Source: Ostreococcus lucimarinus
Lineage: Eukaryota
Strand: one strand, 5' to 3'
NCBI GenBank assembly: GCA_000092065.1
Contig: CP000581.1
DNA length: 64,000 bases
Shown here: in pieces, positions 43,182 to 56,282 of the stretch
How positions within the stretch are numbered: the stretch's first letter is position 1
Layout: each line of letters opens with the position of its first letter
The notes under the pieces: generated by a model
Database searches by the model: none
What the model was told of the DNA's origin: nothing
What the model saw: only the letters and a program-made list of their open reading frames with translations
Position numbers and translations under genes: made by a program

Positions 43182-44081
43182 ATGACGCTGTCGCGCATCG
43201 ATGAGACGGCGACCCAGCGCGTGGGGTCGCTGGAAGTCATTTTCGGCCCGATGTTCAGCGGGAAGTCCACGGAACTGCAGCGACGATTGCGCAGGCACAC
43301 GATGGCGAGTCGACGCGTGCTCGTGGTGAAGTACGCGGGAGATAACAGATACGACGACGCGGTCGGGACGACGACGGCGGCGGTGACGCACGATTTGGCG
43401 ACGATGCCGGCGCTGCCGACGAAAGATTTGAGGAATATCGATAACGTGGCGCACAATTACGACGTGATCGGAATCGACGAGGGACAGTTTTTCGACGACG
43501 TCGCCGCGTTTTGCGAAAAGTGGGCGCACGCGGGTAAGACTGTCATTGTCGCGGCGCTCGACGCGACGTTTCAGCGCAAGCCGTTCAATTCGGTGCTTCA
43601 ACTGGTGCCGTTGGCAGAAAATGTGACCAAGTTGACGGCGGTGTGCACGGATTGCGCGGCGGATGCCGCTTTCACGGCGCGCACGACAAAGGAGACGAGC
43701 GTCGAACTCATCGGCGGGGCGTCGCAGTACAAGGCGGTGTGCCGGGCGTGTTACGGTAAGTACGCGGCCGAGGCGCACGAAAACGGTGCAACGGAGGCTG
43801 CTGCGACGACGACAGTGACGCCGCTTGCGAAACGCGTGGCGGATCGCATGAGCGAACTTAGCTTGAAAACGCCCGCACCGACGGATGGCTCGTTCACTTT
43901 CGCCACGCCAGCGACGCCCAATCTGGGACGCGCGACGAGTCAAAAAGTCGAAAATGTGGACGGGTCGGTGTTAAAGAGCGCCAAGAAGTCGCGAGGCTTC
44001 GGCGGGCCGGGACGCTCGCCGTTAAACGACTTCATCACCGGCGCTGGTTTCCATCGTTCGCCGCTCAGCACTCTGAGGTAG
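43182..44081 (+). CDS. TK1: Thymidine kinase (TK1 type) with a ~100-aa C-terminal extension.
   Basis: P-loop GPMFSGKSTEL, VIGIDEGQFFDD, zinc-ribbon CTDCAADAAFTARTTKE...CRACY. Confidence 0.9.
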   Translation: MTLSRIDETATQRVGSLEVIFGPMFSGKSTELQRRLRRHTMASRRVLVVKYAGDNRYDDAVGTTTAAVTHDLATMPALPTKDLRNIDNVAHNYDVIGIDEGQFFDDVAAFCEKWAHAGKTVIVAALDATFQRKPFNSVLQLVPLAENVTKLTAVCTDCAADAAFTARTTKETSVELIGGASQYKAVCRACYGKYAAEAHENGATEAAATTTVTPLAKRVADRMSELSLKTPAPTDGSFTFATPATPNLGRATSQKVENVDGSVLKSAKKSRGFGGPGRSPLNDFITGAGFHRSPLSTLR

Positions 44082-44193
44082 TCTGCGCGCGACGACGATG
44101 GTTTATTAGACTTAAATCCCGCCTCGCGCTGTAAAGTACGCGAGTAGCAAGTTTGTAGAACGCTATTAGTCTCTCATCACACTCTCGTCACAA

Positions 44194-46119
44194 CTAGTTT
44201 CTAAAACGATCCCCGAGCCCACCCCCGGCGCGCTTCAACATTTCTTCGGGTTTCAACTGCCCAGGCTTCTTCAGCTTGAGATCGGTGTCACGGTCGAACG
44301 GTCGATACTCCCAGTTCGTACCATCGTTCGGATCGTCCCTCTTCTTATCCCTGTCCTTTTCCTTTTTATCCTTCTTGTCCTTTTTTTCTCGCTTCGTAGA
44401 TTCACGTTGCCTCTCTTGGTGAATTTCCACTAACGATTTAGACCGTCGAGTCGCGTTGAACTCTTCGACTAAACGCTTCGTCTCTTCCTCCTTTGCCTTC
44501 GCCGCGGGCAATGCGTATTGCTGTTCTTGAGCTTGTAAAAATAGCTGTTTCTCGCGTTCAGCCGCTTGTTGTGGCGTGTCTGTCCACGCTGCTTCCATTT
44601 CAGCCGTGCGCGCAACCTTTTCTGTTTTGGAAAACGCCGTGACATTCGCCGTCGGGGGTCCTTGGTTCGGACGCTTCTCCGGGGGTAGGTGCGTCATCCA
44701 CTCTTCTCTGGTGTTGCCGTCGTCTTTCGCCCCATCTAGCAACTCGTCGTCCCCGGGTAAGGGCGTACCCTTCATGCGGCGCCATGCCGCCTTTTCGCGC
44801 TCGCCGGCTAGCCACTGCTCAAACTCTTCGCGCTCGTTCGCCTCATTTCGCTTCGCATCCACAACTGCGCGTTGCGTTGGATCTGACAACGCGCTGTGCG
44901 CCTTTTTGATGGCGTCGAACGCATCCTTAGCGTCTTCGTGCGCGCACTTGTCCGGGTGCACCATGAGCGAAAGCTTCCAGTATTTCTTCTTGATAAAGCC
45001 TGCGGTATCTTCCGGAGAAACACCAAGTATGTCGTACGCATCGCCCCCGCGCCTCAGCGTACGCACAAGTCGCATGGCACACGCTTCCCGACTCTCATCA
45101 CTCGTACTCTCCATTTCGGCGACAAGTTCTGGAGGTGGCGGCCCGAATGTGACATCAAACGCTAAATCCGCCGCAGCGGCCTCAAGCATACTTTTCGGCG
45201 GCGCCATTGGTCCGAGAACACGCTTCGCCGACAAGTCCGTGTCAGCACCGCTCGTGACCGGCGGTGGGCGCGAGCTGGGACCGATGTCTGCGCTCGCTGA
45301 GGCCGGCGGCCTCTGCGTGGGACCCGGCGCAGAAGGTTTGGGCTCATCTCGCTCACTATCACTTTCGCGCTCGGCCATGAATGCGTGCGCTTCTTCGCCA
45401 GTCAAAACCTGTATTTCCGTCGACGGTTTCGCATTCGCGCGCTTCGCCGCTCTGGCCTCGTCCTTTTTCGCCTTCGCCGCGGCGACGACTTCGGGATCGA
45501 GTCCGAGCCAAGGCTCGCGAGCGCGCGACAGACTCGCCAACGCGTCCGGTGTCTCGTCGAAGACCGCACCGAATCTACTAGACAAACTCAAATCACCATC
45601 ACCGAGCGCCCACGCCCCGGTCTTGGACGATCTCACCAAGCACGCGTTATCAAAGAAATACTCCAAGTATTTCCGCACGCGCTCGTCGGCGACGCCCGCC
45701 GTGGCCACCCCTCGTCCACCATCCACCGCGCGCAGCAGCTCCCTAAAGCTCTCGCGTTCGCTCGGAAATTTCGCGAGCATGTGCCTCAACGCCTCCGCCG
45801 CGTCCCTTCCCCTCGATACTTGTTCCCGAACGCTTCGCCGCTCGTCCCGCTCGTCGCTCGACGACGCGCTCGACGACGTCCCGCTCGACGACGTCCCATC
45901 CCGTCGCCGCCGTTTCGTCCCTCGCTCCCGCTCGCGTTTCCTCTTTTTCTCCTTGCTCGTCTTCTTTCTCTTCTTCTTCTCCTTCTTCCGCCGTCGCCGT
46001 TCGTCGTCGTCGTCGTCGTCGCCGCCGCGAAGTTTCTCTCTTTGATGCGCCGCGTACGCCGCGTTCAGCGCTTGCACGCTCGTCAGCGCCGCGGACAGCT
46101 GCGGATGATTCCCCACCAT
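44194..46119 (-). CDS. J-domain (DnaJ) protein with a long charged N-terminal region and a K/E/R-rich C-terminus.
   Basis: ATG at ~46119 (MVGNHPQL...). J-domain YDILGVSPEDTAGFIKKKYWKLSLMVHPDKCAHEDAKDAFDAIKKAHSALSD with the HPD motif. The upstream part of track ORF 44194..46677 is antisense to PLPBP. Confidence 0.7.
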   Translation of the reverse strand: MVGNHPQLSAALTSVQALNAAYAAHQREKLRGGDDDDDDERRRRKKEKKKRKKTSKEKKRKRERERGTKRRRRDGTSSSGTSSSASSSDERDERRSVREQVSRGRDAAEALRHMLAKFPSERESFRELLRAVDGGRGVATAGVADERVRKYLEYFFDNACLVRSSKTGAWALGDGDLSLSSRFGAVFDETPDALASLSRAREPWLGLDPEVVAAAKAKKDEARAAKRANAKPSTEIQVLTGEEAHAFMAERESDSERDEPKPSAPGPTQRPPASASADIGPSSRPPPVTSGADTDLSAKRVLGPMAPPKSMLEAAAADLAFDVTFGPPPPELVAEMESTSDESREACAMRLVRTLRRGGDAYDILGVSPEDTAGFIKKKYWKLSLMVHPDKCAHEDAKDAFDAIKKAHSALSDPTQRAVVDAKRNEANEREEFEQWLAGEREKAAWRRMKGTPLPGDDELLDGAKDDGNTREEWMTHLPPEKRPNQGPPTANVTAFSKTEKVARTAEMEAAWTDTPQQAAEREKQLFLQAQEQQYALPAAKAKEEETKRLVEEFNATRRSKSLVEIHQERQRESTKREKKDKKDKKEKDRDKKRDDPNDGTNWEYRPFDRDTDLKLKKPGQLKPEEMLKRAGGGLGDRFRN

Positions 46120-46215
46120 CGCGCGCGTGCGTTCGCGCGCGCGCGCGTCGCGCAGTACCGCCGGCGTCGGCGAATCGCGCGCGTCGCGCGGCATTCGTCG
46201 TCGCGCCCGAGCGCC

Positions 46216-46935
46216 ATGGTCATGGCGTCGCAAACCGCGCGTCAACTCAGCGACGTCGTCGCGCGCGTCGCCAGCGCCGCGGCGAAGGCGAACCGCGCGC
46301 AGGGCGCCGTGCGCTTGGTCGCGGTGAGCAAAACGAAACCCGTGGAACAGCTCAAGGAGTGCTACGACGCGGGACATCGCGACTTCGGTGAAAACTACGT
46401 GCAAGAGATGATCGAAAAAGTGCCGCGCATGCCCGAAGACACGCGCTGGCACTTCATCGGACACCTGCAGAGCAATAAATGTAAGGCCCTGCTCGAGGCG
46501 TGCCCGCGGCTGGCGATGCTGGAGACGGTGGACAGCGCGAAGCTGGCGAATAAGCTGAACGCGGCGGTGCCGGAGGGGCGCGTCGACGCGCTGCGAGTGC
46601 TGGTGCAGGTGAATACGAGCGGGGAAGCGTCGAAACACGGCGTCGAACCGGGTGATTGCGTGACGCTGGCGAAACACATCGTGAGCGAGTGCCCGCGGTT
46701 GAAGTTTGCGGGATTGATGACGATCGGGATGCCGGATTACACGAGCAAGCCGGAAAATTTCGAGACGCTGCGCAAGTGCCGGGAAGAGGTGTGCGCGGCG
46801 CTCGGGATGAGCGAGAGCGAGTGTGAGTTGAGCATGGGGATGAGCGGGGATTTCGAAGCGGCGATAGCGATGGGGAGCACGAACGTGCGCGTGGGGAGCA
46901 CGATCTTCGGTGCGCGGGATTACTCTAAGAAATAG
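46216..46935 (+). CDS. PLPBP: Pyridoxal-phosphate homeostasis protein (YggS/PROSC/PLPBP family).
   Basis: ATG at 46216 (MVMASQTARQL...). VRLVAVSKTKP (PLP-lysine), GENYVQE, WHFIGHLQSNK, SMGMSGDFEAAI. Confidence 0.85.
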   Translation: MVMASQTARQLSDVVARVASAAAKANRAQGAVRLVAVSKTKPVEQLKECYDAGHRDFGENYVQEMIEKVPRMPEDTRWHFIGHLQSNKCKALLEACPRLAMLETVDSAKLANKLNAAVPEGRVDALRVLVQVNTSGEASKHGVEPGDCVTLAKHIVSECPRLKFAGLMTIGMPDYTSKPENFETLRKCREEVCAALGMSESECELSMGMSGDFEAAIAMGSTNVRVGSTIFGARDYSKK

Positions 46936-47407
46936 TCGCGACGCTCTCGCGCGCGCTTTTTAATTCTTCGCTTGCATTCTTTTTACGTTGTTCGCCGCAC
47001 TTCCAGCCTCGGCGACGCGCGCGCGGAGGTCGGCGCGCGCGCGCGCGATGGCTGGTAAGTCCAACGCTCCCATCGCGCTCGCGCTCGCCGCGTTCGCGAG
47101 CGCGACGTTCGCGTTCCCGCTGTGGTACTGCTACGCCCCGAGCAAACCGATGTGGACGCAGGACGAGAGTCTGAGCGTGGCGGCGGTGCGACGAGGGGCG
47201 TTCATGAACAGCGGATCGCGAGACGTCGGACTCGATCGAGGGAAACCGGCGTGAGCGTCGATGGACGGCGACAGGGTAAGGTACGGCGAGGTACGGCGAC
47301 AGGTGTAAAGTAGGCGAGAGGTGTAAAAACAAAAAAAATTGAAATCAACGACAACGGGTCTGTCTACTGTCCTAACGAAGAGATTCCGCGCGCATTCGAT
47401 CGCTCGG

Positions 47408-48457
47408 TCATTCGCCCGCGGCGGCGATGACACCCGCCACGATGGCGGCGACGGCGCCCGCCGACGCGACGCGAAGCTCGGGATCGAAGACGCTCTTGCC
47501 GTGCTCCGCCGCCTTGGAGATGGCTGGGTCGAGTGGAACTTTACCCAGAAACGGCACGTTGAACTGCGCGCACATGGCTTCGGCGCCGCCTTTCGAGGGC
47601 GCAAATACGTCCGTGCGCGCGCTGAGCGAATCCGCGAGCTCGGGCGCGTGCGTCGCCAAAAGCTCGCGCACGCGACTCGTCTCATCCGCGCCCGTGTCCT
47701 CGTTCACGAACGACATCTCGCGCATGGGCACGCGAAGTCCGGACATGTTTTCCACCACCCCCAAAACCTTGATGCCGGTCTTTTTGCAAAAGTTGAGCTC
47801 CTTGCGCACGTCCGCCACCGCCACCTCTTGCGGCGTCGTCACCACCAGCGCGCCGTCCACGCCCGCCTCCTTCAAATACTGCACCACGCTCAAGTGCTCG
47901 TCCGACGTCCCGGGCGGCGCGTCGACGATCAAGTAATCCAGCTCCCCCCACTCCGTGTCCGCCAAGAACTGCTTGATCAAACCATTCTTCCTCGGCCCTC
48001 GCCAAATCACCGCGTCGTCTCGATTCGGCAGCATGAACCCGATCGACATCACCGCCAGATTCTCCTCCACGTACACCGGCGACCACCCAGAGTTACTCTT
48101 GTGCACCTCCGCCTCCGCGTCGCCGCACATCGTCGGCACCGACGGTCCGCAGATGTCCACGTCCAGCAGTCCAACCTCTTTCCCTCGTCCCGCGAGCCCG
48201 AACGCCAACTGCGCCGCGAACGTGCTCTTCCCGACCCCGCCCTTGCCGCTCAGCACCAATATCTTTCGCCGCACCCCGCGCAGGCGCTCGGCGACGCGCG
48301 TCGCGTCCGCGTCGGTGCCCTCGCGCGCTTTCGCCGCCTCGCCCGACGCGCACGCCGCGCGATTGGGACACCCCGCGCACGACGCCTCGCGCCCGGCGCG
48401 CGCGCTCGCGGTTCCCGGGCACGCCTCCGGCGCGTTCTCGGGCCTGTCGTCCGCCAT
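47408..48457 (-). CDS. NBP35: Cytosolic Fe-S cluster assembly factor NBP35 (Mrp/NBP35 P-loop ATPase).
   Basis: ATG at 48457. N-terminal four-Cys motif [25 protein letters not shown]-loop [22 protein letters not shown]. Mrp signature through VENMSG. The upstream track ORF (to 49045) is antisense to the next gene. Confidence 0.85.
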
Positions 48458-48599
48458 CGTCGCGCGCGGCGACGCGACGCGCGCGCGAGTGCGGCGGACG
48501 GCGCCGACCTCCAGCGCAACACCATCCGGAAGAAAACGCGGCAGAAGCGCGCGCGCAGCGTCGGCCGCTCGAGCGCGCGGCGCTCGAGCCGCGCGCGCG

Positions 48600-51500
48600 A
48601 TGACGGACAACGCGCACGCGCACGCGCGGCGCGGCCGCGCGAGCGAAGACGCGAACGAGCGCGCGAGGACGGCGCGACGAAGCGTCGATGCGTGGGCGAT
48701 GCACGACGCGGCGAGACCGCTCGACGGCGCCGTGGGCGACGCGAATCGCGAGCGTCGGGCGTCGGGAAGCGAGACGACGTCGGTGACGCTATCCGTCGGC
48801 GATGGACGCGCGCGAACGGGCGAGGGAGGGGCGCCGCGAGCGCCGCCGGGGGCGTTCGCGATGCAATCGCGCGCGCTCGCGGAGGAGGAAAAACGCGTGT
48901 ACGAGACGAGACGGACGTCGTGGGAGGCGCTGGCGCGCGAAGCGCGCGAAAAATGCGCGCAAGGGACGCTGCGGGACGTGTGGTTGCGCGAAAGGCTGTC
49001 GAACATCACGAGAAAGACGCACGAGGGGGAGCGGACGGCGCTCATGACTGATTACTTCGCCGACGCGGACGATCGCGTGGCGGTGGAGGGAGTTGATGGC
49101 GTGCGAAGAGGGATGACGCATCGTGAATTGCGAGTTTTGATCGATCGAGTGTGTGAAAAAGATATGCCCGAGTGGGGCGTGCGCGCGCACGGTGGGAGAA
49201 TCGCGGTGGTGGTGCCAAACGGGCCCGAACTCATGACTTCTTTGATGTGCGTGTTGCAGCGACACTGCGCGGTGCCCATCAATCCGGTGACGACGCAAGA
49301 GGAGATTGAAGAAGAGCTGTTGAATACGAACGCGAAAGTGTTGTTGTATCAACGTGACGGGGGTAAGGGCGATGTTAAGATGCGTCGGTTGTGCAAGAAG
49401 CTCAAGTTGACGCCTTTGATCATCACGCCGAGCCCGACAGTGGCGGGCGATTTCACTCTCATCGGCGATCCGTACGGCTTAGCCACAGAAGAGGACTCGG
49501 CTGGGAACGACATCGAGCTCATGCAAGCCGACCGCTTGGCTTTGATTCTACACACGTCTGGGAGCACGGGGAAAAAGAAGGTTGTTCCCATTGCGATGTC
49601 GCAAATCCTTATCGGCGCCGCCGCCATCGCGGCGTCTTGCGGCTTGAATGAAGACGATATTTGCTGCAACTTCATGCCGTTGTTCCACGTCGGAGGTATC
49701 TTAAGAAATGTACTGGCGCCAATCATGTCCGGTGGATCCACGGTTGCTATGCCTTTCTTCGATGTCGACAACTTTTGGGAAGTCCTCGAGAGCAAAAAGT
49801 GCACGTGGTACTACGGCGCGCCGACTATGCACATGCTCATCGTAAAGTCCGCGGAAACCATGGCGAAGAACGACAAGGGATCAGTAAAGACATGTGTGAG
49901 GTTTGTCGCCAACGCTGCGGGCCCGTTACAACCGGCGACCGCGACGGAACTTCGACGCTTGTTCAACAACGCCTCGGTTTTGCCTTCGTACGGTATGACG
50001 GAGTGCATGCCTATCTCGTGCCCGCCCATGGGATACGCGTTAGAGCGCCCGGGGACTTCTGGTCGATCAATCGGGCCGGAAATCGGCATCATAGACGATA
50101 GCGGTAATCTTTGCCCTTCTGGTGCGGTTGGGAACATCATGGTGCGTGGCCCTCTCGTGTTGACCGGGTACGAGGGCGAAGCGCCCGGTTCGAGCGGATT
50201 TGAGCCGGGAGGCTGGTTTAACACTGGCGACATGGGTAGGATGGATGATGATGGTTATTTGTACGTCACTGGTCGGACGAAAGAAGTCATTAATAGAGGA
50301 GGGGAAATCATCTCGCCGGTTGAGATTGAGGAAGCGCTCGCGTCGCTACCGGCAGTGTCTGAGTGCGTCGCCATCTCTGTCCCACACGGTACGCTTCAAG
50401 AAGTTGTTGGGGTCTTGGTTGTTCCAGTGAAAGGTGGACAAGTTCCCGGTATGCGGCAAATCGTACAGCACGTCGCCAAACGTTTGCCACCGTCCAAGTG
50501 GCCGCAGTGCCTTATTTTAGCGAGTGGCATTCCGAAGTCCATCACGGGAAAAGTGAGTCGCAGCGTGATCACTAGGCAGCTGCGACTACCTTCGCTCGAA
50601 GATGGTATGCGGGAGTTAGAAACAACGTTTGAAGCAGACTTTGCGGACAACGCCCTCTCTGGGGCACAGGCATTGAATGTAGACAACGCCTCGTCAGAAG
50701 TCGTGCAAGCGCTTCTTCTAGTGCCTGGCGTCAACGACGCCGGAGCTTGGATGGATAGCACCGGCTCAATCATCGCTGTCGTTACCCCGAAAACGCTCGA
50801 TGCGTCATCGGTGAGCTCGGCATCCACGCGTTACCTTCCTGGTTATCTTGAACCAAAGGAAATCTTGCCCGTGGCGTCAGTCCCACGAGATGCGCAAGGC
50901 GCCATCGAAGTTTCCAAAGTTTACGAAATGATGCGCCAAGATTTGACAGACGCTCCAGCGAACCCCAATCAAGAGCTTCTCGCGCATTTGTGGGGCGAAG
51001 TGCTCGGTACGGATTCGAGCATGATATCCATCAAGGATGATTTCTTCCTGAGCGGCGGCTCGTCCATTGCGGCGGGTCAACTCGCGGGTTTGATTCGCAA
51101 GAAGTTTGAAGTCAACATCACCGGAGCGGATATGTTCGAGCTTCGCACGATTCAAAGAATTGCGCAGATGATCGACAAGCGTACGAAGGAGGCGGAGAGC
51201 TCGGATAGTAAGCCGACGCACGCTCCACGACCCGTCGGCCCGGTTGACTGGGTCACGCCGAAGTCAAGCTTGGGCATCATCCCGAGCATCGTGCAGCTAA
51301 TGCCCTTGTACCTGATCAAGCCATTCTACAACATGGCACGTTGGGTTTTGTTCTTGATGTGCTGGTCGCACGTGTTCCACTACCTCGGTCCGAGCTTGCA
51401 TTGGATGAGGCGCGAGCACTTCATGGCTAAGGCTCAAAAGTTTGGCATGAATGAGGCGCATTCGCACTTTTACAGTACCGTGCAGCTTCTGTCGTTCTTC

Positions 51501-53759
51501 GTGGCGATATTCTTTGTAGCTTTGATCGTGTCGATACTGTTCCCACTTAGCGCGATCGTGTTCAAGTGGGTAGTGTTGGGGCGATTACAAGCGGGATCGT
51601 ATCCACTTTGGGGGCAGTACTACTTGCGATGGTTCTTAGTCGAGCAAGTGACCAAGATTGCGGGTCTCGGCATTTTTGATCTTTCTCCATGGTTGTTCAC
51701 TTGGTACATGCGCATGATGGGGGCTTCGATTGGAAAAAGTTCATATGTTAGCCCGAAAGCCATCATCGGCGACTTTGATCTTATCACGATTGAAAAGAAC
51801 ACCACTGTAGATGAAGGGTGCAACATTCGCGCCTTTGAAGCGCGTCGCGGCGGTATGCGTCTGTCGCCAATTTTCATCGGTGAAGGTTGCACGCTGTGCG
51901 TCCACGCGGTGTGCGGGCCGGGCGCATACGTTCCAGCTGGTTCGACACTTGCCGCTTTCACATCCTGGAGAGAGATGGATCCGCAACAAGTCCGGCCCGT
52001 GAGCACGAAAACGGCACAAATGCACTCGGAAACGCCGCGGTTGGCGTCGCGTTTGTTCGTCGCGTTTCCCATCGTTTTCACGTGCTTCTTCGTTCGTTGG
52101 CTGCCGTGGGTTTTAGTGCTGCGCGTCGTCCAGCAACACTCCATCGGAGATAACTTACTCACGCACGCGGGTATGGCAAACTGGAGACAAGAGCTCGACA
52201 CACTTGACAACGACTACGACGCGCTCGAAGTGTTCGTCACGCTGCTCGGGCGTTTGAGCTGGACGGATTGCATCGAATGGTTTATGGACCCGTTTCGGCT
52301 GGGTTGCATAGCGCTTGCGCGTCTGATGCACGCGACTGCCGGCCCGTTTGTACAGCTTTTCGCGACGATTCTAGTCAAGCGCGTCATCATTGGTAAGTTT
52401 AAATCTGGCGGCTTACCGCAAGCGCCGGCGGCGCGCGAGTGGGAATTGACACGTCGCTACATCATGCGTAAACTTTGCCCTAATGGCAAGTTTTACGGTG
52501 CGACGGATCTACTAGGTAAGCATTACCAGTACACAACGTATATTTACCGTGCGCTTGGCGCGACGGTTGGTGAGCGCATATTCTGGCCAGGCTCTGGCGT
52601 CATCGTCGGGGACGGAATGTACGATCTTTTGCACATAGAAGACGATGTCGTGTGGGGATCACGTTCTGCGGTGTATCCAGCAGATACCATCGGAGCTCTT
52701 CCCATACGTATTCGGCGTGGCGCGAACATCAGCGACCGTTGCGTCATCTTTGGAGGCGTTACTGTGATGCCGAACGCGTGCCTCGGCTCTGGGAGCGTCG
52801 CCGCTCGCAAGATGACGATTGCGAGCGGGTCGATTTGGGTCGGCAGTCGCAATGGCGTAGCCGTACAACTCGACCCTGGCGGTGCGTCGAGTATGATGGA
52901 TGAGCGCCAGACCGCGAAGCCATTCGGACGTGCAACGTACTTGGGACAAGCGACGTACCCCGTCGTCCCGTGGTACTTCATGCCCGTGATTTGTATCAGC
53001 GTGCAAATTTTCAAAGCCGCCGCGAACATGTTGCCGATTTACGTCGCGTGGTACGCCACCGCGTACATCTCCAGAGTATACCTTGACGAAGATTGGCAAA
53101 CTCTCGACGCGACACGGTACTTGAGCATCTTGTTCGTCGTATTCTTGATTTTGCGCGGTGTTCAAACGACGTTCAATCTCGTGAATTCCATCTTTCTGAA
53201 GTGGATCATCGTCGGTCGACGCACGCCCGGAAACTATCCGTGGGACACTAGTTCGTATTGTTTCCGCTGGAAACTGTGCGATATCATGAGCGACACGACA
53301 GATTTAATGCTTCTCTCCGGAAGCGAACATTTGTGCCGATACTTCCGCGCGAAAGGAGCCAACATTGGGCAGAACGTTTGTTTGTACCCCACGGGAGCGG
53401 ATCCGCCCATGCCCGAACCAGACTTGGTCACTATTGGCGACGGCGCGTGCATCAATTTCGCCCACGTCATCGCGCACACGAATACGTTGGGCGCTTTTGC
53501 GCTGAACAACATTCTCATTCGCGAACGCTCGACCCTCTGCATGGAGAGTCGTGTCATGGGTGGCACGAAAGTCGGAGCAGATTCCATTCTCCTCGAACAC
53601 ACGCTCGCAATGGTGGGTGACGATGTTGAACGCGGGGGGATCTGGCAAGGATGGCCCGTACAAATGGTTTTGAATTCGTGCGAACGCCCGCGCGGAAAGT
53701 CGTCGCCGTCAGGCCCCGAGAAGGCAAGTCCGATGGCCAAATCATATGGGGCCATGTAA
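48600..53759 (+). CDS. Pls-type (epsilon-poly-L-lysine synthetase-like) single-module nonribosomal synthetase. Domains: adenylation (~49100..50570), thiolation/PCP (~50960..51190), then a membrane region with six predicted transmembrane helices interleaved with three tandem hexapeptide-repeat (LbH) modules C1 (~51700..51960), C2 (~52550..52830) and C3 (~53350..53640).
   Basis: Single 1719-codon exon from ATG 48600 (alternative start 48861). A-domain cores: [15 protein letters not shown] (A3), SYGMTEC (A5), [39 protein letters not shown] (A7/A8), [11 protein letters not shown] (A10). Carrier motif [15 protein letters not shown]-terminal 850 aa are an internal triplication, each unit holding a pair of hydrophobic helices followed by the motif (K/R)W(V/I)(V/I)(L/V)GR..(A/P)G.YP and then [LIV]GxxxxI-type hexapeptide repeats. 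Confidence 0.8.
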
Positions 53760-53857
53760 ATACTGTATCTACTATAGACACATCACATATTCTATTCGTT
53801 TCAATTTGGTTTTTGTTTTTGCCGTTGTGAATGTAAAAATGTTTTGTCACACTTCAC

Positions 53858-54832
53858 CTACTCTGGAAACCAGTCGACGCCCGCGTCGAAGGCGCCGTCG
53901 CCTCGCTCCATTTCTTTCGCTATCAACTCTAAGCCTAAAGGATAATTATTCGATAACACTCGCGATATCAACGCCACCTCGTCCCAGTGCGTTTTCAGCG
54001 CCGCCTCCACGCCCTCGGACTCACCGTGCGCCTCGCGAATGCTCTTCGCCCACTCGTCGGCGAGCACGATTTTTCCAAGGTGTTTGCGCAACGCGGGATC
54101 GAGCAACGCCGTCATCTGTGCCTCCGCGGTGACCCCCGGCGGTTTCGCCTTCATCGGCGCACGCATTTCCTTCGCGAAATACCACACCGTAAACATGAAA
54201 CGTTCGCGCATCGCCGGCATCACGCGATGCAATCCAAACTCGGACGAAAAAATCACCACTCGTCCCGCCTTCGGCGCGATCGTCACCCGTCCTCGCGGAA
54301 AAGGGTACAACGCCAGCGCGCCGCCGTCCCTCGCCTCGCACCAGTCTTCGTCCAAGTACGCGCACATCGTCACCCGCCTCGAATCTAAACTCGCGTCGCT
54401 GTCGAAGTGCAGCGGAAAACATCCGCCCGCGCCTTCGTTCACTTGCAGTTTCGTCGACGTTCTATCGAGCGCGCCGCCGCCGAGCGCGCCGAACGCCTCG
54501 TTCAGCGCCTCCATCACCGACGTCTCTTTCGCCAGCTCGTTCACCAACGGCGCGCTCGCCGCGTCTTCCTTCGACAACCGATGCACCTCGCACTCGTACA
54601 CGTGCGGTTTCGCGAGCGCGACGACGCCCTCGCGCGCGAACAGCGACGCGTTCGCGACGAACGCACCGCGTCGCCGCAGCGCGTTGAATTCATCTTTCAG
54701 CGCGCGCGCGCGCGCGACGTCGAAGGCGTCGTCCAAAACGACGTAACCGTGTCGCGCGAGTCGCGCCTTGGCGTCGCCGGCGACGAGCGCGCGCGCGATC
54801 GCGGCGTAGGCGCCGGTGAAGCGCCGCGACAT
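53858..54832 (-). CDS. 2-oxoglutarate/Fe(II)-dependent dioxygenase, prolyl 4-hydroxylase-like.
   Basis: HxD...H iron triad (FPLHFDSD...GLHRV) and the RxS 2OG-binding region (RERFMFTVWY) within a double-stranded beta-helix pattern. Confidence 0.55.
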   Translation of the reverse strand: MSRRFTGAYAAIARALVAGDAKARLARHGYVVLDDAFDVARARALKDEFNALRRRGAFVANASLFAREGVVALAKPHVYECEVHRLSKEDAASAPLVNELAKETSVMEALNEAFGALGGGALDRTSTKLQVNEGAGGCFPLHFDSDASLDSRRVTMCAYLDEDWCEARDGGALALYPFPRGRVTIAPKAGRVVIFSSEFGLHRVMPAMRERFMFTVWYFAKEMRAPMKAKPPGVTAEAQMTALLDPALRKHLGKIVLADEWAKSIREAHGESEGVEAALKTHWDEVALISRVLSNNYPLGLELIAKEMERGDGAFDAGVDWFPE

Positions 54833-54878
54833 GTCGTTCGGGACGAACCGTTAAAAAACGTCGAGACAGCGCGACGCG

Positions 54879-56282
54879 ATGGCGCCCGACGACGTCGAGC
54901 GCGCGGTGCCTCTCGAGGACGACGTCGAGCGGCCGCTTCGCGACGTCGCGAGCGACGGCGACGACGACGACGACGACGCGAGCGAGGACGCGCGCGCGTC
55001 GGCCGGAGACTTGGCGACGATTTTCGCGCTGTGGAACACGATGGTCGGCAGCGCGGTGCTCGCGGTGCCGTGGGCGTTCACGGAGAGCGGATTAGCGCTG
55101 GGCGCGGCGAGCGCGGTCGTTATGACGTGCGCGATGGCGTACACGGCGACGCTGGTGCTGCGGTACGGCGCGCGGGGAGGGCACGACGACTTGGCGGGGA
55201 TGTGCGGCGCGGCGCTGGGACCGCGAGCGAGAGCGGGGTGCAACGCGGCGATGGCGCTGATGATGGCGCAGTGCGTGGTGGTGTTCGACATGATGCTGTC
55301 GACGAGCGTGTACGGCATCGTCAAGGGGTTCGCAGATTTGGCGAAAATGCCGGCGACCGGTGGCGGCGGGACGACGGCGCTGGCGGCGACGCTCGCGTCT
55401 TCGAATTCCACGGGCTGGGCGACGTGCACGAACGCCGCGAAAGACGCCGCGAAGTGTTGGAATCCGTTCACGGCGGTGGGTGTCACCGCCGTTGCGCTGA
55501 TGTGTCTCGGAAGTCTGAAGAATCTCGACGGTTTCGTCGCCGTGAGCGTGCTCGGGCCCTTCTTCATGACGTACTTGATTTTGTTCATCGTATTCAAATC
55601 AGTCGTGGCGTCGGCGCCCGTGGCGCCGATCGCGCCGTACGCGAACTTTTCGACGTTTAAAAAGACGGCGGGGGTGTTGTCGAGCTGTTTATTTTCCCAT
55701 CACGCCGTGATTCCGGTGTGCCGGGCGAACAGTAAGTCGAAAAATAACGGGCGGAATCTTCTCGTCGCGTACGTGTTGGCGCTGATGTCGTACCTGGCGC
55801 CGGCGTTGGCTGGGAATTTCAGCGCTGCGTACGTCGCCGTGCGACGGGGGCCGAACGGTTCGTCTCGGGCGGCAAATTTCTTGCGCGTGTTTCCACCGAG
55901 CGATTACTATACTCTATCCGCGCACGTGGCGGTGACGGTACAGTTCTTGACCATGGTCCCGCTGCTCTTGTACATTCTGCGAACGCAAGTCTTTGGCCTG
56001 CTTCCGCAATTTCCAGCCAAGTACCACGGCGCGGCGTCGTTCGCGGTCAACTTTGCCGCGATCGCTCTCGGCTCCTTCTGCGCGGCGCATCCCGACATCG
56101 ACATCGGTATGATTCTTTCCAAGTGCGGCGCCGTGTTCGGCTTGATTTTCGCCTACGCGGCCCCCGTGCTCGTACACGTATTCGGACGCCGAGGAAATCG
56201 TCACCCTCTGTGGAACCACATCGCGCACGGCACCATTCTCGCCGTCGGCGTCGCCATCGCCCTCGCGCAATTCGTCGATTGA
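54879..56282 (+). CDS. Amino acid transporter of the Aa_trans (AAAP/vacuolar amino-acid transporter-like) family, about 11 predicted TM helices.
   Basis: N-terminal ATIFALWNTMVGSAVLAVPWAF signature, then repeated hydrophobic segments to the C-terminus. The ATG is only 47 bp from the divergent oxygenase ATG. Confidence 0.75.
   Translation: MAPDDVERAVPLEDDVERPLRDVASDGDDDDDDASEDARASAGDLATIFALWNTMVGSAVLAVPWAFTESGLALGAASAVVMTCAMAYTATLVLRYGARGGHDDLAGMCGAALGPRARAGCNAAMALMMAQCVVVFDMMLSTSVYGIVKGFADLAKMPATGGGGTTALAATLASSNSTGWATCTNAAKDAAKCWNPFTAVGVTAVALMCLGSLKNLDGFVAVSVLGPFFMTYLILFIVFKSVVASAPVAPIAPYANFSTFKKTAGVLSSCLFSHHAVIPVCRANSKSKNNGRNLLVAYVLALMSYLAPALAGNFSAAYVAVRRGPNGSSRAANFLRVFPPSDYYTLSAHVAVTVQFLTMVPLLLYILRTQVFGLLPQFPAKYHGAASFAVNFAAIALGSFCAAHPDIDIGMILSKCGAVFGLIFAYAAPVLVHVFGRRGNRHPLWNHIAHGTILAVGVAIALAQFVD

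Follow-up and report, generated by a model that had tools for sequence, protein, structure and literature searches.

The locus examined here raises the question of what a picoalga with one of the smallest eukaryotic genomes might make with a large membrane enzyme organized like a bacterial poly-amino acid synthetase. The gene lies at 48600..53759 on the + strand of a 64,000-nucleotide stretch of the Ostreococcus lucimarinus genome (contig CP000581.1 of assembly GCA_000092065.1), which as a whole is the window of this analysis. It is a complete, single-exon gene coding for 1719 aa plus stop. In its product, hereinafter the synthetase, an adenylation (A) and a thiolation (T) domain precede three units, each combining two transmembrane (TM) helices with a left-handed beta-helix (LbH), i.e., a membrane-bound A-T-(TM2-LbH)x3 protein of a PMA-synthetase-like family. 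A first-pass annotation, made from the letters of the window, had described it as a Pls-type nonribosomal peptide synthetase (NRPS) with a cationic poly-amino acid as its predicted product. We arrive at a different answer: with a probability of roughly 55%, the synthetase is a membrane-anchored, NRPS-like homopolymer synthetase of a family that includes the fungal poly(beta-L-malic acid) (PMA) synthetase. Its product would most likely be a malate-derived polyester, a polyanion, and not a cationic polyamide.

The adenylation and carrier domains

On the synthetase, Pfam matches AMP-binding at aa 158-524, AMP-binding_C at 575-651 and PP-binding at 793-858, and the same search found no condensation, thioesterase or reductase domain, in agreement with the domain order and the A-T didomain lacking these partners that had been read initially. 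The A domain (49071..50594, + strand; aa ~158-665, delimited by Pfam, NCBIfam and PDB alignment) displays the P-loop TSGSTGKKK (aa 319-327), the gate His363, the invariant R369 and the catalytic Lys651, and its pocket residues are V364/G365, A439/A440, G465/M466 and P471. Its best NCBIfam match is FadD7 (261 bits), the other best matches also being acyl-CoA ligases; of the 113 NCBIfam families that match the synthetase at E<=0.01, the 25 best do not include the amino-acid adenylation model TIGR01733. Likewise, the best PDB match is the oxalate--CoA ligase AtAAE3 (E=1.8e-68), accompanied by Lathyrus OCS and yeast Pcs60, and NRPS-type A domains among the listed PDB matches reach only ~1e-24 to 1e-34. 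The A4 motif reads LFHVGG in the synthetase family as against AFD(A/L/M)S in six Pls-family proteins, and the motif alignment finds the amine-binding Asp absent from the synthetase. Taken together, these comparisons indicate an A domain of the acyl-CoA-synthetase type, closest to oxalate--CoA ligase, and not of the amino-acid-activating NRPS type. Of the initial description of an NRPS-like A-T pair, the carrier half thus stands, being homologous to that of Pls/PosA, and the A half does not. The cationic product predicted from it is unlikely, since the A domain is of acyl-CoA-ligase type and without the amine-binding Asp.

The T domain (50976..51173, + strand; aa 793-858; PP-binding E=1.3e-12) bears the phosphopantetheine attachment site Ser822 in a GGSS motif, and this Ser is invariant in the alignment of the synthetase family and Pls. 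Preceding it is a vestigial, Pls-like second A-subdomain (50676..50975, + strand; aa ~693-792), in which Pfam matches AMP-binding_C only at E=0.14. By hhalign, this linker aligns with the A-T region of Pls (residues 412-525) at 98% probability and E=3.1e-13; the family linker matches the family's own A-subdomain less strongly (E=3.5e-9). The A10 lysine, part of SGK(V/I)DRK in Pls, is replaced in 7/7 synthetase-family members displayed (..AQGAIEVSK.. in the alga), and the subdomain is degenerate and presumably catalytically dead. The simplest inference is that a complete oxalyl-CoA-synthetase-like enzyme was fused before a Pls-type protein and replaced its A-core, the old subdomain being left behind as a linker; the remnant would then clearly document how an NRPS-like enzyme exchanged one domain for another.

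The substrate pocket

A residue-level alignment of the A domain to the oxalate--CoA ligase structure 5ie0 (E=2.5e-69) shows how its pocket departs from that of the closest relatives. The oxalate-specific residues of AtAAE3 are Ser289 and His319 (PMC8905533). In the synthetase these correspond to Ala440 and Pro471, respectively, with His216 corresponding to Gly365, and the full set of pocket changes relative to oxalyl-CoA synthetase comprises H216G, C288A, S289A, A313G and H319P. Oxalate was accordingly rejected as the substrate, both specificity residues being lost. We compared 30 diverse members drawn from algae, fungi, Physarum, diatoms, a cryptophyte and a myxobacterium, and found the pocket signature of the synthetase (H-V-G-G..R-N / N-A-A-G / Y-G-M-T-E-C-M-P) to be nearly invariant: Pro471 never varies, and the Ser289 position is never Ser but Ala, or Gly in 5/30. 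Such near-invariance implies one common substrate across the family, which would be unusual for secondary-metabolite enzymes. The same motifs, including NAAGxL, recur in a protein of Aureobasidium melanogenum (P0518).

The probable link to polymalate synthetase

The PMA synthetase of Aureobasidium (QHD40385.1) has been described as consisting of A-like, T and C-like domains, the last with six transmembrane regions, and as having no thioesterase (PMC11286673, PMC11905612, PMC9210645). Its gene is 5049 bp long and its deletion affects PMA production (PMC11286673, PMC9210645), and antiSMASH classifies it as NRPS-like, apart from the NAPAA (Pls-type) cluster in the same genus (PMC11905612). The Aureobasidium members of the synthetase family are 1685-1690 aa long, P0518 having 1688 aa, and the algal synthetase matches P0518 from end to end (BLASTP 730 bits, 31% identity over 1644 aa, E=0) and falls in the same clade of the tree. 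By its published description, gene length and antiSMASH class, QHD40385.1 very probably belongs to this family. The other classical polymalate producer is Physarum. Here, a Physarum polycephalum transcript (P0025, 1728 aa) codes for a full-length protein of the family, and its A-domain pocket is the same. According to a review, the polymalate synthetase of Physarum was never identified (PMC9210645), so P0025 would be an obvious candidate for it.

Briefly, we advance the following mechanism. The acyl-CoA-synthetase-type domain would adenylate a small carboxylic acid, most likely L-malate, a hydroxy-dicarboxylic acid chemically near the substrates of the closest relatives of the A domain. The acyl group would then pass to the phosphopantetheine arm on Ser822. 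The three fused hexapeptide beta-helices might form a pseudo-trimer, held at the cytosolic membrane face by three helical hairpins, and the C-terminal domain would move the acyl group from the carrier thioester to the hydroxyl of a free monomer or an untethered chain, with the invariant His1626 as the likely general base. If the enzyme is processive, repeated transfer would give a polyester, a polyanion, which might then be exported.

Several points weigh against this assignment to polymalate. Equating QHD40385.1 with P0518 rests on description, and no cluster representative carries the PMA synthetase name. The evidence on PMA synthetase itself is genetic and second-hand via reviews, which describe no purified-enzyme assay (PMC11286673, PMC9210645, PMC11905612). 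Further, very many of the fungi and protists that carry the family are not known to make polymalate; therefore, either the polymer has been overlooked in most of them or the conserved product is something else. To our knowledge, Physarum and a few fungi are the only organisms from which polymalate has been reported to date, and no report of it from Ostreococcus was found in the literature searched. Finally, we know of no malate-specific residue established for any ANL enzyme; therefore, the pocket speaks for the same substrate as that of the fungal proteins rather than for malate as such. We give somewhat less than even odds to the broader proposal that poly- or oligo-malate, or else a related polyanionic polyester, is made by an ancient, vertically inherited polymer synthase in Ostreococcus, Bathycoccus and many other eukaryotes that carry the gene.

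The same machinery might instead polymerize another monomer, namely a small hydroxy- or dicarboxylic acid or a non-alpha amino acid; glycolate, lactate, tartronate, 3-hydroxypropionate and citramalate are candidates. Polymalate would then be confined to Aureobasidium, or the link to PMA synthetase would be wrong. Such a monomer would be in keeping with the relatives of the A domain, which activate oxalate, malonate and short or medium fatty acids, with the pocket, which is widened relative to oxalyl-CoA synthetase by the five changes given above, and with the literature covered, which contains no biochemically determined substrate for any family member. However, the pocket residues are essentially identical in the alga and Aureobasidium, so a different algal monomer would need specificity determinants outside the canonical pocket. 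On balance we regard this alternative as unlikely, although it deserves to be kept in view.

The membrane-embedded terminal region

Over the C-terminal ~850 aa, the Pls/PosA terminal-domain model TIGR02353 matches in five stretches (E=3.6e-55). The first-pass annotation had discerned here three internal repeats, each a TM pair with a left-handed beta-helix, in the overall order A, T, TM1-TM2-C1-TM3-TM4-C2-TM5-TM6-C3, and both the repeats and the order are borne out. BLASTP aligns the units with each other (1 vs 3, E=2e-13; 2 vs 3, E=5e-7), hydropathy reveals three pairs of hydrophobic segments, and an AlphaFold2 model of the final 859 aa, computed from 80 homologues, concurs, as does Pfam on the order. 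The model (predicted local distance difference test score, pLDDT, 88.9; predicted template modelling score, pTM, 0.88) shows three pairs of long helices, six in all; after each pair come short core helices and then a stretch of beta-helix strands. Moreover, the three units align one-to-one with the three units of true Pls.

Unit 1 (51270..52019, + strand) consists of TM1-TM2 (aa ~893-992), a motif, core helices and beta-helix C1 (aa ~1055-1120), which in the 859-aa model appear as helices H33-80 and H90-132 and strands 195-260. Unit 2 (52020..52934, + strand) comprises TM3 (aa ~1148-1183), an insert, TM4 (~1231-1264), the motif and beta-helix C2 (~1344-1425), with a Pfam Hexapep match (E=2.5e-4) at aa 509-540 of the C-terminal fragment. 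Unit 3 (52935..53756, + strand) is made up of TM5-TM6 (aa ~1458-1538), the motif, beta-helix C3 (aa ~1610-1691) and a short disordered tail. The motif (K/R)W(V/I)(V/I)(L/V)GR..(A/P)G.YP, which had been ascribed to every repeat, is carried by units 1 and 3, and unit 2 departs from it. The TM3-TM4 insert (aa ~1184-1230; window ~52149..52289) coincides with gaps in the Aureobasidium alignment and has a pLDDT of 64-71; it appears to be specific to the Mamiellales. In C3, the alignment columns show His1626 and Asn1628 to be invariant in the synthetase family, the former also being conserved in Pls, and C3 shares 31% identity with its Pls counterpart over 160 aa (E=3e-14). As the membrane helices are paired and the T domain must reach the beta-helix parts, we predict that A, T and all three beta-helices lie on the same, cytosolic, side of the membrane.

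The best local Foldseek matches to the beta-helix parts are VCA0836, serine O-acetyltransferase and galactoside or maltose O-acetyltransferase, enzymes that use CoA thioesters; the TM-score normalized to the query is at most 0.14. No solved terminal-domain structure was found, the structure search giving weak matches to LbH acetyltransferases or gamma-carbonic anhydrases only. That these structural neighbours are single-transfer O-acetyltransferases raises the possibility of a non-polymerizing membrane acyltransferase, in which A-T would load the acyl group and the beta-helix would transfer it once to a lipid, glycan or protein. The lack of a release (thioesterase) domain would suit such an enzyme, and the near-universal presence of the family in fungi and its retention in minimal picoalgal genomes would fit a housekeeping modification. 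Against this, every relative of the terminal domain that has been characterized, namely Pls, PosA and, going by its description, PMA synthetase, polymerizes iteratively and likewise lacks a thioesterase (PMC10522769, PMC11286673). We therefore consider a single transfer distinctly improbable and prefer iterative polymerization by the synthetase.

Relationship to Pls and PosA

The shared domain order and the homology of the T and terminal domains invite the reading of the synthetase as a true Pls-type enzyme that would join a diamino acid (lysine, ornithine, diaminopropionate (Dap) or diaminobutyrate (Dab)) into a cationic isopeptide polymer. We compared it with bona fide Pls, encoded on a Streptomyces plasmid (1319 aa, gene adjoining an M1 peptidase), and with five other Pls/PosA-annotated proteins. 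Although profiles for AMP-binding, PP-binding and TIGR02353 all match the synthetase, its TIGR02353 score of 188-194 bits lies below the curated cut-off of 423.1 bits; the synthetase and its Bathycoccus, Guillardia and myxobacterial homologues together span 166-194 bits, their A domains being best matched by FadD7-type ligases. In contrast, the Streptomyces Pls and a Sphingomonas protein score 675 and 773 bits with TIGR02353 and 334 and 419 bits with TIGR01733, above the cut-offs. BLASTP of the synthetase against Pls yields short local matches only, and a neighbour-joining tree of the T and terminal regions sets the synthetase family apart from Pls with 100/100 bootstrap support. Thus, as judged by the curated models, the synthetase is not a member of the Pls/PosA family. 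Epichloe, the source of the true fungal Pls, Epls (PMC7179176), also has a ~1700-aa member of the synthetase family (P0308/P0389), which marks the two as paralogous families, presumably with different roles. With the A domain outside the amino-acid-activating class and the Asp of the AFDxS motif missing, a diamino acid polymer is very improbable. The original 'Pls-type' label, therefore, fits the ancestry of the C-terminal two-thirds but is wrong as to the chemistry and the rarity of the enzyme.

Distribution and phylogeny of the family

That rarity had been put as the restriction of such enzymes, among eukaryotes, to a few ergot-family fungi, which does not hold: homologues extend across algae, Physarum and all major fungal phyla. 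True fungal Pls (Epls) is indeed rare, but it is a separate family (PMC7179176). Full-length homologues of the synthetase with 32-49% identity come from Bathycoccus, Mesostigma, Coccomyxa, Guillardia, diatoms, a pelagophyte, Physarum, chytrids, Mucoromycota and many Basidiomycota, as well as from a very large number of Ascomycota, among them Erysiphe, Hortaea, Epichloe, Aspergillus, Fusarium, Trichoderma and Aureobasidium. A terminal-domain search of 1.84 billion representatives of sequences clustered at 50% identity returned 246 clusters at E<=1e-30 and 965 at E<=1e-10. Among prokaryotes, sampled at one genome per species, there are at least two full-length members, in Kitasatospora and in a Planctomycetota metagenome-assembled genome (L012, L013), whose neighbours (secretin, ECF sigma, fasciclin, TerD) are uninformative on the substrate; two further family sequences (P0047, P0258) are myxobacterial (Myxococcales-type). 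On these searches, the family is widespread in eukaryotes and appears rare in bacteria.

The simple neighbour-joining distance tree, in which the rooting between eukaryotes and bacteria is weak (48/100), places three bacterial sequences together at the base, recovers a Mamiellales clade (100/100) that joins Mesostigma (72-91), and groups the fungi with a support of 90 for the terminal region. Such a pattern suggests that eukaryotes inherited the gene long ago and for the most part vertically, rather than that Ostreococcus acquired it by a recent transfer. Five other bacterial matches, from Gemmatimonadota, Halomicronema, Calothrix, Anaerolineales and Solibacteraceae (L017, L036, L066, L068, L082), cover the A domain into the T region, at most query residues ~143-946, with the full Pls-type terminal domain unmatched. 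The many stand-alone bacterial ligases that matched were set aside as a guide to the substrate: among the matches listed, they share only the generic KEVINRGGE and not YGMTECM. Certain members carry extra domains, namely RING/zf-C3HC4 fingers in many Mycena, a ligand-gated ion-channel domain (PF00060) in P0066 and an oxysterol-binding domain (PF01237) in the Peltaster protein P0455. The P0001/P0004 clusters contain near-identical 'Tara' entries (P0131, P0163, P0164) with start and stop codon flags.

The family is already in the databases under uninformative or misleading names, and the algal synthetase is a further member of a barely studied group, of which the fungal PMA synthetase appears to be the sole representative studied so far. 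A literature search for the A-T-TM/LbH architecture in algae or Ostreococcus found nothing relevant, and two fungal secondary-metabolite surveys do not mention it. The labels 'Oxalate--CoA ligase' and 'peroxisomal-coenzyme A synthetase' attached to fungal members are probably misleading, and hundreds of fungal proteins are likely to be misannotated in this way.

Gene model and genomic context

The synthetase is encoded by a nuclear gene that genuinely belongs to an Ostreococcus species. Over 25 kb, from 38.6 to 63.7 kb, the window runs colinear with three metagenome contigs that were assembled independently (57, 85 and 216 kb; 95-98% identity), and the eukaryotic neighbours of the gene include NBP35, a full-length ABCB transporter and CAF-1 subunit A. 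The order thymidine kinase (TK) - DnaJ - YggS - NBP35 - synthetase - 2-oxoglutarate (2OG)-Fe(II) oxygenase - amino-acid transporter is kept at the locus of a 77%-identical orthologue and again on a 1.35-Mb Bathycoccus prasinos chromosome, and the O. tauri orthologue is located on a 1.1-Mb chromosome. The block of synteny between Ostreococcus and Bathycoccus spans ~43200..56200 of the window, with the 2OG oxygenase convergent to the synthetase. The contiguity with flanking eukaryotic genes, on which the first-pass annotation had made its reading depend, is thus seen in three independent assemblies, and synteny and colinearity together also sustain its view of an intron-less eukaryotic nuclear gene in an algal array. 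A bacterial contaminant or a chimeric assembly among algal genes, for which one might cite the existence of a few bacterial homologues and a G+C content at third codon positions (GC3) below that of the neighbours (0.66 as against 0.79-0.86), is rejected as virtually inconceivable on this synteny and on the position of the synthetase in the tree with green-lineage sequences, not with bacteria.

As regards the gene model, the reading frame is open on the + strand from 47955 to the stop at 53757-53759, and the ATG at 48600 gives the 1719-aa protein. A metagenomic protein (P0001) has the same 1719-aa length at 99% identity, and the O. tauri orthologue (XP_003074512.2, annotated 'AMP-dependent synthetase/ligase') has 1718 aa, its cluster representative being 80% identical to the synthetase. 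The upstream ATG at 48600 is the likely start, because the N-terminus alignment shows no Met in O. tauri at the position of the next candidate, M88 of the window (ATG 48861). The protein opens with a variable Arg/Ala-rich extension (48600..48890, + strand; aa 1 to ~97), and conservation among Ostreococcus clades begins only after it. The frame also remains open for 645 nt 5' of the ATG (47955..48599), across the spacer and antisense to NBP35, and several further long overlapping open reading frames occupy the region upstream; these are non-coding artefacts of GC-rich DNA.

NBP35 (47408..48457, - strand), identified by Pfam ParA/NUBPL (E=1.9e-88) and an N-terminal CX13CX2CX5C Cys motif, is divergent to the synthetase, as had been noted. 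The GC-rich spacer between them (48458..48599) computes to 142 bp rather than the 143 bp given before, and is presumed to be a putative bidirectional promoter region. The GC3 of the synthetase (0.66) compares with 0.86 and 0.79 in the flanking genes at 47408..48457 and 53858..54832, respectively, and the overall GC falls from 64% in its first ~900 nt to 54-55% in the remainder. The lower GC3 might come from lower expression or from an older foreign origin.

Implications

If the assignment is true, the predicted product shifts from a cationic antimicrobial polyamide to an anionic polyester, and a polymer pathway studied only in Aureobasidium would extend to marine picophytoplankton and most eukaryotic supergroups. 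In Physarum, polymalate binds Ca2+, histones and DNA polymerase alpha. A conserved synthase in some of the smallest eukaryotic genomes would suggest either a basic cellular role or an unrecognized source of marine dissolved organic matter, and the long-sought polymalate synthetase of Physarum would be identified in P0025. Concrete experimental candidates are this Physarum protein and XP_003074512.2 of O. tauri, in which gene targeting is possible. The main value of the analysis thus lies in a testable prediction of a picophytoplankton polyester, a candidate for the Physarum enzyme and a history of domain replacement.

Comparison with known systems

Set against known systems, the synthetase combines features of four. 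The PMA synthetase of A. melanogenum shares its described architecture and a size of about 1680 aa, and the pocket motifs of P0518, the family's representative in this fungus, are identical to those of the alga. The differences lie in the overall divergence (31% identity to P0518), in the ~100-aa Arg/Ala-rich N-terminal extension and the TM3-TM4 insert of the alga, and in the producers themselves: the fungus makes polymalate, which is not known from the alga.

With Pls/PosA the synthetase has in common a T domain followed by three units of a TM pair and an LbH, a homologous terminal domain, the His of C3 and, in its vestigial A-subdomain, a Pls-like remnant. The published AlphaFold model of PosA, with six bent helices beneath three packed beta-helices (PMC10522769), agrees with the secondary-structure pattern that we modelled. 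However, the A domain of the synthetase belongs to another ANL class without the amine-binding Asp, forming an extra, complete acyl-CoA-synthetase head; the family is mostly eukaryotic, whereas Pls is mostly bacterial; and the predicted linkage in its product is an ester as against the isopeptide bond of the Pls product.

The oxalyl-CoA synthetases (AAE3, Lathyrus OCS, Pcs60) are the closest solved relatives of the A domain (E ~1e-55 to 1e-69) and share its core motifs, gate His and catalytic Lys. They are soluble, stand-alone CoA ligases with Ser289/His319, whereas the synthetase has Ala/Pro at these positions and is predicted to hand the acyl group to its own carrier domain. Finally, the hexapeptide O-acyltransferases (serine O-acetyltransferase, galactoside/maltose O-acetyltransferase, VCA0836) share the left-handed beta-helix fold and a pantetheine-linked thioester donor; yet, these are soluble homotrimers of ~190-270 aa, whereas the synthetase fuses three diverged copies of the fold in one chain, interleaved with membrane hairpins.

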